Assembly (NCBI GenBank): GCA_964625535.1
Contig: CAZVEX010000002.1
Coordinates: forward strand, 85,559 to 149,558
Direction: 5' to 3'
From: an uncultured Gammaproteobacteria bacterium
Lineage (GTDB): Bacteria; Patescibacteriota; Microgenomatia; Daviesbacterales; UBA10151
Length of the DNA: 64,000 bases
Shown: piece after piece, positions 60,781 to 61,865 of the stretch
Layout of the letters: each line of letters starts with the position of its first letter
How positions within the stretch are numbered: position 1 is the stretch's first letter
Notes under the pieces: model-generated
What the model saw: the letters and a program-made list of their open reading frames with translations, nothing else
Database searches by the model: none
Told to the model about the DNA's origin: nothing
Program-made: the position numbers and the translations under genes

Positions 60781-60781
60781 A

Positions 60782-61084
60782 TTACAATGGTTCTCCTATT
60801 CCTAATGATCCTCTCATAGGATCTATTGTTCCTGAAGTTTCATCTAGCTGATGTTGTTTCTTGAAATATTCAACATACTCGCTGTCACCCCCTAAGGCAT
60901 ATCTTATACCTTCAACTATGCCAAACTCTCCGCTTTCATCTATTGCTTTGTTACATAATTGCATTAGAAGATCTTTTTCATGTTGACTTAGTCTCGTTCC
61001 ATTAATAAATTCTTGTAGCTCTTCGCTATCAGCGTTCGTACCAGGTATACCAGCAATCCTTCGTAACTCATGTTCATTTCTCAT
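60782..61084 (-). CDS. Hypothetical 100-aa protein inserted between groES and groEL (gene Y)
   Basis: ATG ORF whose stop is 1 nt before the groEL ATG. No family recognised. The C-terminus ...[14 protein letters not shown] contains GSLGIG. Confidence 0.4.
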
Positions 61085-61088
61085 ATTT

Positions 61089-61136
61089 TTATTCCAAAAT
61101 TGCCATTAAGTCGTCAAATTTTAATATCTTAGCCAT
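61089..61136 (-). repeat. 15-codon chimeric mini-ORF ([15 protein letters not shown]): groEL-start-like 5' half fused to a groES-tail duplicate
   Basis: ATGGCTAAGATATTAAAATTTGAC against the groEL start ATGGCGAAGATATTGAAGTTTGAT, then AAATTTGACGACTTAATGGCAATTTTGGAATAA against the groES tail AAATTTGACGACTTAATGGCAATACTTGAATAA. It forms a diverged direct repeat with 61543-61575. Confidence 0.8.
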
Positions 61137-61493
61137 TTAATATTCCTCCCCTGAAACTAAAGCATCTCCTGGTATTTCAGCTATGGACCCTCCTGCCAGA
61201 TCTATACCAACTTGACCAGATAAATCAAGTTTAAGTTCTTCTCCGGCGGAAAGCCTCACAACAAATCCAGTTCCCAGACCCAATACAGCCCTCAATGTAT
61301 GTCTTACAATTAACAGAGAGTTAAGATCTTCTGCTGCTGCTCTCATAGTTTCTGCTCTTTCCGGTAAACCGCGTACATTATCAACATCCAACTGCCTAAA
61401 ACTGTCTGCAGTGGCTTCTTGAGCCACTTGCACTTTCCCATCTATTAATTTCAGGAAGTTCTTTGCTCTTATTTCTACATTAGTTTCTGCCAT
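61137..61493 (-). CDS. Hypothetical 118-aa protein inserted between groES and groEL (gene X)
   Basis: ATG ORF with an AAGGAAAAAT ribosome-binding site. It is flanked by the two groES-tail repeat copies. Ala/Gly/Leu/Glu-rich with no recognisable family. Confidence 0.4.
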   Translation of the reverse strand: MAETNVEIRAKNFLKLIDGKVQVAQEATADSFRQLDVDNVRGLPERAETMRAAAEDLNSLLIVRHTLRAVLGLGTGFVVRLSAGEELKLDLSGQVGIDLAGGSIAEIPGDALVSGEEY

Positions 61494-61544
61494 ATTTTTC
61501 CTTTTTTGTTTTTCCCTTTATACTTGATACATAATACTTTATAC

Positions 61545-61865
61545 TTATTCAAGTATTGCCATTAAGTCGTCAAATTTCACCAGTTTATATTCTCTTCCCT
61601 CGATTTTTATTTCATCTCCGCCCCATTTTTTATAAACCACTCTGTCCCCTACCTTAACAGGACATTTCATAACTTTGCCACCCTCCAAAACCAGATCATC
61701 CCCGCAAGAAATAACCTTTCCCTGGGCCGGTTTTTCCTGGGCGCTCTCCGGCAAGATTATACCTGATGCAGTAGTAGTCTCCGCCTCCTGCGGTTCAACA
61801 AGAACATACCCCATGAGGGGTTTAATGTTTAATTTTGAAGCTATATTCTTTTTTATCTTGACCAT
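61545..61865 (-). CDS. groES: Co-chaperonin GroES
   Basis: NIKPLMGYVLVEP...GIILPESAQEKPAQGKVISCG...GDRVVYKKWGG...KFDDLMAILE. The exact start is uncertain, with an 11-aa N-terminal extension if the ATG at 61865 is used. Confidence 0.85.
   Translation of the reverse strand: MVKIKKNIASKLNIKPLMGYVLVEPQEAETTTASGIILPESAQEKPAQGKVISCGDDLVLEGGKVMKCPVKVGDRVVYKKWGGDEIKIEGREYKLVKFDDLMAILE

Follow-up and report, generated by a model that had tools for sequence, protein, structure and literature searches.

Introduction

Integron arrays carry promoterless, mostly orphan small genes in the same orientation behind one upstream promoter; they are hypervariable between close relatives and have repeated boundaries, the attC sites, which are imperfect inverted repeats of about 57-141 nt. 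Core-gene hotspots and the moron or anti-defence-like loci of phages hold tiny, unrelated and variable orphan open reading frames (ORFs) at a fixed site between conserved flanks, and islands at tRNA or tmRNA genes leave the upstream gene intact and are bracketed by copies of its 3' end in direct orientation. In the candidate phyla radiation (CPR), the highly conserved and expressed rRNA genes contain intervening sequences with small ORFs. Small modulators of GroEL are encoded by phage T4, namely the gp31 co-chaperonin and the 39.2 ORFan product, both with genetic evidence. The groES-groEL pair (groESL) itself is among the most invariant gene pairs of bacteria, and its junction normally measures a few nucleotides. 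In this study we analyse that junction in a 64,000-nucleotide stretch of DNA (the window; positions 85,559 to 149,558 of contig CAZVEX010000002.1, assembly GCA_964625535.1), which was deposited as an uncultured Gammaproteobacteria bacterium and is placed by GTDB in the Daviesbacterales. Here groES and groEL are separated by two orphan genes, X and Y, and by a 15-codon ORF (the mini-ORF) that is fused from pieces of both chaperonin genes, and in related genomes the same junction holds other small genes, which we call cassettes. We consider it probable that the junction is an integrase-free hotspot of promoterless, translationally coupled cassettes shuffled by recombination, and that the mini-ORF is the junction left by an unequal crossover between alleles. 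No description of groESL small-gene cassette arrays was found in the literature that we searched.

Judged from its sequence, this locus shares with integron arrays all the features listed above for them except the kind of boundary. However, no IntI is encoded nearby, the genes within 3 kb being rpiB, a DUF5674 gene, murB, a nucleotidyltransferase-like gene, a bPH_2 gene and a peptidase M23 gene. No attC site is present either: the boundaries in the window are 0-51 nt long without an inverted repeat, and the junctions of larger arrays are direct repeats of start regions. The boundaries are instead 4-40 nt repeats of the ribosome-binding and start region or copies of the ends of the flanking genes, the array stands inside an essential two-gene operon, and its recombination is presumably homologous or driven by microhomology. 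With the core-gene hotspots and the phage loci it has in common the variable orphan ORFs and the conserved flanks, which may act as homology arms, but core-gene hotspots usually lie between operons and bring self-contained units with promoters or terminators of their own, whereas here the insertion is ORF-precise inside an operon and reuses the start region of the downstream gene. Like a tRNA or tmRNA island, the insert is bracketed by direct repeats of the 3' end of an intact upstream gene; unlike such islands, it has no recombinase domain in X or Y, and its inner repeat is joined to a copy of the groEL 5' end, which would mark an unequal crossover. The cassette products resemble the T4 modulators in being small, fast-evolving orphans, but no similarity in sequence or fold was found, and their link to GroEL is operon position alone. 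Finally, the CPR rRNA insertions come from the same radiation, and one cassette is itself related to an intervening-sequence protein; however, those insertions sit in RNA genes and are spliced or processed out, whereas the cassettes are placed between two protein-coding genes and are apparently translated.

Results

Structure of the groES-groEL junction

On the minus strand of the window the order is groES, a 51-nt spacer (spacer S), X, the mini-ORF, 4 nt, Y, 1 nt and groEL (Table 1). The succession of a Cpn10 and a Cpn60 gene on one strand is that of any groESL operon, but the usual gene-free spacer of a few to tens of nt is missing, and 764 nt with two genes and the mini-ORF lie between the groES stop and the groEL start. 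The TAA stop codon of X directly abuts the ATG of the mini-ORF, the stop of which is followed after 4 nt by the ATG of Y, and a single nucleotide separates the Y stop from the groEL ATG. A repeat search returned two diverged direct repeats. D1 (38 nt, 87% identity) links the groES tail to the 3' part of the mini-ORF and so brackets S and X, and D2 (23 nt, 87% identity) links the groEL head to its 5' part; the two overlap inside the mini-ORF on the 8 nt AAATTTGA, within the K-F-D codons. The initial annotation, made from the letters of the window, had reported the two same-strand ORFs at an abnormal spacing, a groES repeat around X, the abutting stop and start codons, and a mini-ORF chimeric between the groEL head (four mismatches in eight codons) and the groES tail (three mismatches) at the K-F-D microhomology. 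Each of these observations was recovered here, the bracketing repeat independently by the repeat search.

A chimeric or mis-joined repeat, another possibility raised at that stage, had to be weighed, since the source is a metagenome-assembled genome (MAG) and short repeats of the groES and groEL ends are present in it. However, L082, a 993-nt contig that Logan assembled independently from run SRR12113419, matches the window without a single difference from 61638 to 60646, across all junctions, and no exact repeat in the locus exceeds 23 nt, which is shorter than the k-mers that assemblers usually employ. We conclude that the structure is real. In addition, the same architecture is found in a related genome, L083, where it is reproduced by an independent assembly, L084, and we regard an assembly artefact as extremely improbable. 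The Logan contigs L082 and L084 both end inside groES and inside groEL, flanking the cassettes, a pattern that would be expected where the samples contain several strains that differ in their flanks or cassettes. X and Y correspond to HYZ06_01230 and HYZ06_01235 in a Candidatus Daviesbacteria MAG.

Table 1. Coordinates of the groES-groEL locus and of associated features in the window
Feature	Position	Strand	Description
groES	61545-61865	-	106 aa; Pfam Cpn10, E 6e-29; ends in KFDDLMAILE-stop, tail variant 1 (ATA CTT GAA TAA)
Spacer S	61494-61544	-	51 nt; four GTATNNN heptads (61517-61544), then an A-rich leader with AAGGAAAAAT before the ATG
X	61137-61493	-	118-aa orphan cassette gene, start MAE
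Mini-ORF	61089-61136	-	15 codons; groEL head (61114-61136) and groES tail variant 2 (61084-61121)
K-F-D microhomology AAATTTGA	61114-61121	-	8 nt common to the groES tail (61570-61577) and the groEL head (60758-60765, AAGTTTGA)
Y	60782-61084	-	100-aa orphan cassette gene with coding periodicity
groEL	59164-60780	-	538 aa, Cpn60; Pfam Cpn60_TCP1, E 1e-75; AGGAG inside the 3' end of Y
Repeat D1	61540-61577 and 61084-61121		groES tail and its copy
Repeat D2	60758-60780 and 61114-61136		groEL head and its copy
Predicted operon promoter	61926-61898	-	TTGACA-17-TAAAAT
Degenerate CIRCE-like inverted repeat TTAGCAGGTCTTGACAAGTAGTGC	61913-61936	-	overlaps the groES promoter and encloses the -35 box
Gene 5' of groES	61916-62728	-	270 aa; weak nucleotidyltransferase similarity, Pfam E about 0.006
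hrcA	26815-27540	-	operon with grpE
grpE	26315-26809	-	operon with hrcA
CIRCE-like inverted repeat 5' of hrcA	27541-27567		directly upstream of hrcA; 3 mismatches to the consensus
TTAGCAG-N11-TAGTGC 5' of hrcA	27544-27567		second occurrence at groES

History of the mini-ORF

Two relatives carry a homologue of X, in both cases directly 3' of groES. In L085 the order is groES-X''-groEL, without the scar formed by the mini-ORF, and in L083 it is groES-X'-MSKILKFDDLMAILE-stop-S-Z-groEL, where Z is an unrelated 99-aa ORF. The groES tail occurs in two variants: variant 1 (ATA/ATC CTN GAR TAA) is followed by S, and variant 2 (ATT TTG GAR TAA) by AAAT-ATG. In the window variant 1 with S stands at groES and variant 2 in the mini-ORF, whereas in L083 the positions are swapped. 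Over 88 nt, window 61577-61491 (tail, S and the start of X) and L083 2389-2475 (mini-ORF tail, S and the start of Z) have 91% of their positions in common, while the flanking genes of the two loci share only 67-78% identity. A 35-nt part of S is also 100% identical 3' of the groES stop in L089 and L090. S is conserved between genomes at 91-100%, far above the neighbouring genes, and could be a leader, an enhancer, a promoter or a binding site. The swapped tail and spacer modules therefore point to recombination between distinct cassette-bearing alleles, and the scar appears to be a record of such recombination within a clade-wide hotspot. The differences between the mini-ORFs of the window and L083 are nearly all synonymous, as would follow from the copying of each half from functional groES and groEL alleles. 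As to the composition of S, it consists of the heptads GTATAAA GTATTAT GTATCAA GTATAAA and then GGG, a heptad motif unique in the window, and AAGTATNAAG repeats that resemble it occur at other intergenic sites of related genomes (L090:2712-2742; L092:1881-1897; L100:521-537).

The initial annotation had instead read the mini-ORF as the product of a microhomology-mediated tandem duplication in which the groES/groEL junction was doubled in place and X and Y now sit in the two spacer copies. On this reading the two genes would either have a common origin in one duplicated gene or have entered later. Such an event would leave precisely this kind of footprint, a chimeric junction at 8 shared nucleotides, and local duplications do occur in these loci, as the 154-nt repeat (79% identity) and the two paralogous cassettes of L140 demonstrate. 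The shared-sequence junction is indeed present at AAATTTGA, but the supposed units are not copies of each other: BLASTP gives no alignment between X and Y as candidate paralogues, although the repeats that flank them are still 87% identical. Moreover, X is an older resident, with homologues in L083 and, at the same site without any scar, in L085, and the two tail copies are different allelic variants with different downstream spacers, in swapped positions in L083. Two later insertions into empty spacers would also be less parsimonious than the joining of two alleles that were already occupied. The duplication reading is thus not upheld, and we judge it unlikely.

Cassettes at the groES-groEL junction across the clade

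Loci were collected from GTDB genomes by a GroEL scan and from JGI metagenomes by a GroES scan, after which the groES-groEL spacer was measured; the counts that follow are among the matches listed, with at most 600 pattern matches per scan. Loci with a GroES at least 60% identical were taken as Daviesbacteria-like, which gave 74 distinct loci, and cassette ORFs were called crudely, from ATG starts only and at a length of at least 55 aa. By this measure 35 of the 74 Daviesbacteria-like loci have at least one spacer ORF, 11 have at least two, and the maximum is six, in L140. The spacer is shorter than 30 nt in 31 of these loci and at least 150 nt, up to 2760 nt, in 38, and in the non-Daviesbacteria loci with both genes (n = 73) it measures at most 171 nt. 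The spacer ORFs invariably run in the direction of the operon and take up 80-99% of most spacers, with median gaps of 4 nt between groES and the first ORF, 12.5 nt between ORFs and 5 nt between the last ORF and groEL. All 53 unique ORFs resemble groES and groEL in a G+C content that falls from the first to the third codon position (GC1 > GC2 > GC3) and in first positions rich in purines, and they are therefore genuine coding sequence.

The cassettes are extremely diverse. BLASTP sorts the 56 ORFs (53 unique) into 47 clusters, or about 44 once identical copies are collapsed, and the idea that the ORFs of different genomes form one detectable family was rejected, because neither pairwise BLASTP nor phmmer gave significant matches between them. 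No homologue of a cassette was found outside groESL spacers among the contigs examined. Turnover is rapid: the spacers of L136 and L147 measure -1 and 383 nt, although their groES genes share 92.5% nucleotide identity. Only one of the 53 unique ORFs has a Pfam match. This cassette, L124:930-1283, encodes a four-helix-bundle protein of the 23S rRNA-intervening-sequence or bAvd-like kind (Pfam E 1.6e-29) and lacks the M-A/T-E start described below.

The largest array, L140:3316-6075, spans 2760 nt and holds six ORFs of 110-187 aa and five copies of a 39-nt junction repeat. Its internal 154-nt duplication spans a junction, and its two paralogous cassettes share the C-terminus VIGRGDFNI. Nine further entries (L002, L005, L008-L011, L015, L029 and L039) are titled 'uncultured Gammaproteobacteria bacterium' and have a GroEL 64-87% identical to that of the window; in L002 at least, the DNA neighbouring groEL also matches the window. 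The taxon names deposited for these GTDB-representative MAGs look wrong.

Cassette boundaries and start regions

The start regions of the cassettes follow the consensus aGGAnAAAATATG[G/A]CAGAAA, close to the groEL start AAAATATGGCAAAAAT. An M-A/T-E start, often M-A/T-E-R, is found in 29 of the 53 cassette proteins against 2 of 437 crudely called background genes (Fisher p = 6e-30), and X is the only place in the 64-kb window with the motif AAWATGRCAGAAA. In the arrays L140, L116 and L138 each junction is a direct repeat of 23-39 nt, the last copy of which is the start region of groEL itself. Start regions are also more alike within a locus than between loci (0.468 vs 0.390, permutation p = 2e-4), and in most ORFs the 3' end contains the GGAG or GGA that serves the next start. 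Past the first two or three codons, descent of the cassettes from the GroEL N-terminus was rejected, since local alignment against shuffled controls gave a best p value of 0.014 in 53 tests, which is at chance level.

These boundaries bear on another explanation, in which a site-specific integrating element carried X into the 3' end of groES, supplied a substitute copy of that end and left attL/attR-like repeats. The 38-nt direct repeats of the groES 3' end on both sides of S and X would suit such an element, as would the second copy of the groES tail that stands beside a repeat resembling a miniature inverted-repeat transposable element (MITE) in L004 and L086. However, no integrase or recombinase is encoded in the insert or within 3 kb of it, the inner repeat is fused in frame to the groEL head, which is unexpected for an element entering groES, most cassette-bearing loci have no tail duplication, and the array junctions are start-region repeats rather than att-like sites. 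We therefore find an integrating element highly unlikely. The MITE-like CPR repeats (GTCATCCTGAG...GAAGGATC...) lie in the groES-groEL spacer at L001:3881-4000, L004:3476-3568 and L086:448-539, and the tail copies that follow them in L004 and L086 (FDDLMGVLE-stop and DDLMAILEE-stop, respectively) form a type of scar that differs from that of the window.

The X and Y proteins

X and Y had been said to resemble no recognisable family, and this description holds. Neither has a match at E <=0.1 in Pfam, PHROGs, NCBIfam or PADLOC, and at the same threshold these collections reveal no recognisable toxin, antitoxin or defence domain in them. Word-indexed searches of 5.8 billion clusters returned only X and Y themselves. 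An exhaustive phmmer search of 1.84 billion representatives, with X and Y concatenated as the query, found two homologues of X, P0003 (60% identity, E 2e-21) and P0004 (44%, E 9e-12), and no credible homologue of Y, which was missing from every other search as well. Weak matches to P0005, a 4307-aa YadA-like adhesin, and P0006, a 1159-aa repeat protein, were driven by repeats and were rejected as spurious. A profile built from the three X proteins found no further members, IMG/VR contains no phage relative of X or Y, and the groES-groEL interval gave no match to a structured RNA in Rfam at E <=1. The comparison of spacers in related genomes, which the initial annotation had proposed, placed X in two relatives (L083 and L085) and the scar in one of them (L083), and X and Y are not widespread known genes. 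The fold comparison proposed along with it was of limited yield. The AlphaFold2 model of X, built from a three-sequence alignment (predicted local distance difference test, pLDDT, 64), combines a helical hairpin (residues 3-34 and 43-70) with a small beta hairpin and a tail without order, and a Foldseek search against the PDB matched generic coiled-coil or helical hairpins only (best E 0.15). The model of Y is mostly helical, unreliable (pLDDT 50) and too poor for a fold search.

X has evolved rapidly. Blocks TLRAVLG and RGLPER-like are invariant across 40-60% divergence and the C-termini are variable. By the Nei-Gojobori method the ratio of nonsynonymous to synonymous divergence (dN/dS) is 0.55-0.85 for X against 0.08-0.09 for groES in the same genome pairs, where the dS of groES is near saturation, and 0.16-0.5 for other cassette families. 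The synonymous divergence (pS) of X is below that of the adjacent groES, at 0.33 vs 0.68 between the window and L083 and 0.43 vs 0.62 between the window and L085, which we take as a probable sign of lateral exchange.

These values raise the question of whether the inserted ORFs have any protein function, or are kept open only to avoid polarity and to keep the translation of groEL coupled. The high dN/dS of X and its variable C-termini would fit the latter, as would the extreme turnover and orphan status of 52 of the 53 cassettes, the supply of a ribosome-binding site for the next start by the ORF ends, and the low confidence of the structure models. On the other hand, open junk would not be expected to show codon-position periodicity equal to that of groES and groEL in 53 of 53 ORFs, the other cassette families have lower dN/dS, X keeps its conserved blocks in spite of its divergence, and the 31 loci with spacers below 30 nt suggest that junk could be lost. 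We find it doubtful that the ORFs are without protein function, and this explanation would be compatible with the cassette model, because its claim concerns protein function.

Expression and regulation

A consensus scan finds a strong sigma-70-like operon promoter, TTGACA-17-TAAAAT, with 11 of 12 matches, about 35 nt 5' of the groES ATG. No promoter-like or terminator-like site was found on the coding strand within 60781-61544, and in spacer S the consensus scan detected no internal sigma-70-like promoter. These scans agree with the earlier proposal that X and Y are co-transcribed with the chaperonin genes. The accompanying proposal, that the promoter is under the control of HrcA through a CIRCE element (controlling inverted repeat of chaperone expression), can be kept only in a weaker form. 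The canonical element (TTAGCACTC-N9-GAGTGCTAA) is not present at groES at <=3 mismatches, the site there having five, and at that threshold it occurs in the window only 5' of hrcA. What overlaps the groES promoter is a putative degenerate, clade-specific form that is conserved in relatives. The pattern TTAGCAG-N11-TAGTGC, derived post hoc, has exactly two occurrences in the window, 5' of hrcA and 5' of groES, and the conservation of the repeat in relatives provides an independent check on it: a CIRCE-like repeat with TTGACA in its loop lies at about -72, with <=5 mismatches in 52% of upstream regions vs 0.14% of background windows. Both HrcA (Pfam E 3e-20) and GrpE are encoded in the window, their genes forming an operon with a CIRCE-like repeat directly upstream (Table 1). 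Heat-shock co-regulation of the cassettes is plausible from these motifs. The 270-aa nucleotidyltransferase-like gene 5' of groES is a conserved upstream neighbour of groES in L083, L085, L002 and L003.

Discussion

The findings of this study suggest the following course of events. The groES-groEL junction of the Daviesbacteria clade would collect promoterless small-protein genes. These would enter in the orientation of the operon, exactly between the stop codon of groES and the start codon of groEL, and each would bring a Shine-Dalgarno and start region of its own, similar to that of groEL. With only a few nucleotides between them, the cassettes would share the transcript that starts at the groES promoter with its CIRCE-like site, and coupled translation would run through them as far as groEL. 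They may be gained, lost, duplicated and swapped between lineages, with the groES 3' end, the groEL 5' end and the start-region repeats as short homologies, so that modules of groES tail, spacer, ORF and groEL head recombine between alleles and lineages. In the window, an unequal crossover at the 8-nt K-F-D sequence would have joined the groEL head after X in one allele to the groES tail before Y in another. The product, groES-S-X-(MAKILKFD/DLMAILE-stop)-Y-groEL, would keep the reading and coupling chain intact.

Several points weigh against this view. The chimeric scar is found in two genomes only, the window and L083, and one origin with later remodelling is not distinguished there from two origins. 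The sample of loci is limited to at most 600 matches per scan and includes short metagenome contigs. The enrichment of the M-A/T-E start is measured against crudely called background genes, and the A-rich M[AT]E start may have been favoured for the efficient initiation that it allows, rather than being inherited from a common ancestor or marking a site of recombination. Co-transcription and translational coupling of X and Y with groESL are predicted from spacing and motif scans. X and Y could be only marginally functional, given the dN/dS of X and the pLDDT of the two models, and the origin of the cassette bodies is left unexplained. Even so, we still favour a hotspot shuffled by recombination as the probable explanation of the locus.

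As for the proteins, we take the position that the cassettes encode real, fast-evolving, soluble accessory proteins that are co-expressed with the chaperonin under heat shock. They are predicted to be mostly helical, and what ties them to the chaperonin is their position. They are possibly chaperonin modulators or conflict-related factors. More broadly, we speculate that groESL may serve as an integrase-free cassette platform, in which the conserved ends and the portable groEL start act as homology arms, small orphan genes spread between species and are expressed at heat-shock levels, and the M-A/T-E-R proteins are chaperonin-directed factors; we put this forward tentatively, as possible rather than probable. 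On such a platform, one possibility is that the cassette proteins are host weapons or decoys against phages that need GroEL for capsid folding, and another is that the site is a nursery where the co-expressed chaperonin buffers new proteins.

If the hotspot reading holds, an ultra-small CPR clade has turned the groES-groEL junction into a hypervariable array of one to six orphan genes, with a recognisable motif at its boundaries and visible traces of recombination but without a dedicated recombinase, which would offer a natural example of conserved essential genes acting as homology arms for gene flow in minimal genomes. The finding also calls for caution in annotation and in cpn60-based barcoding of Daviesbacteria-like lineages. 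The approximately 50 small proteins that share nothing but the chaperonin context may provide a handle for the study of GroEL/GroES binding, heat-shock phenotype and phage resistance.

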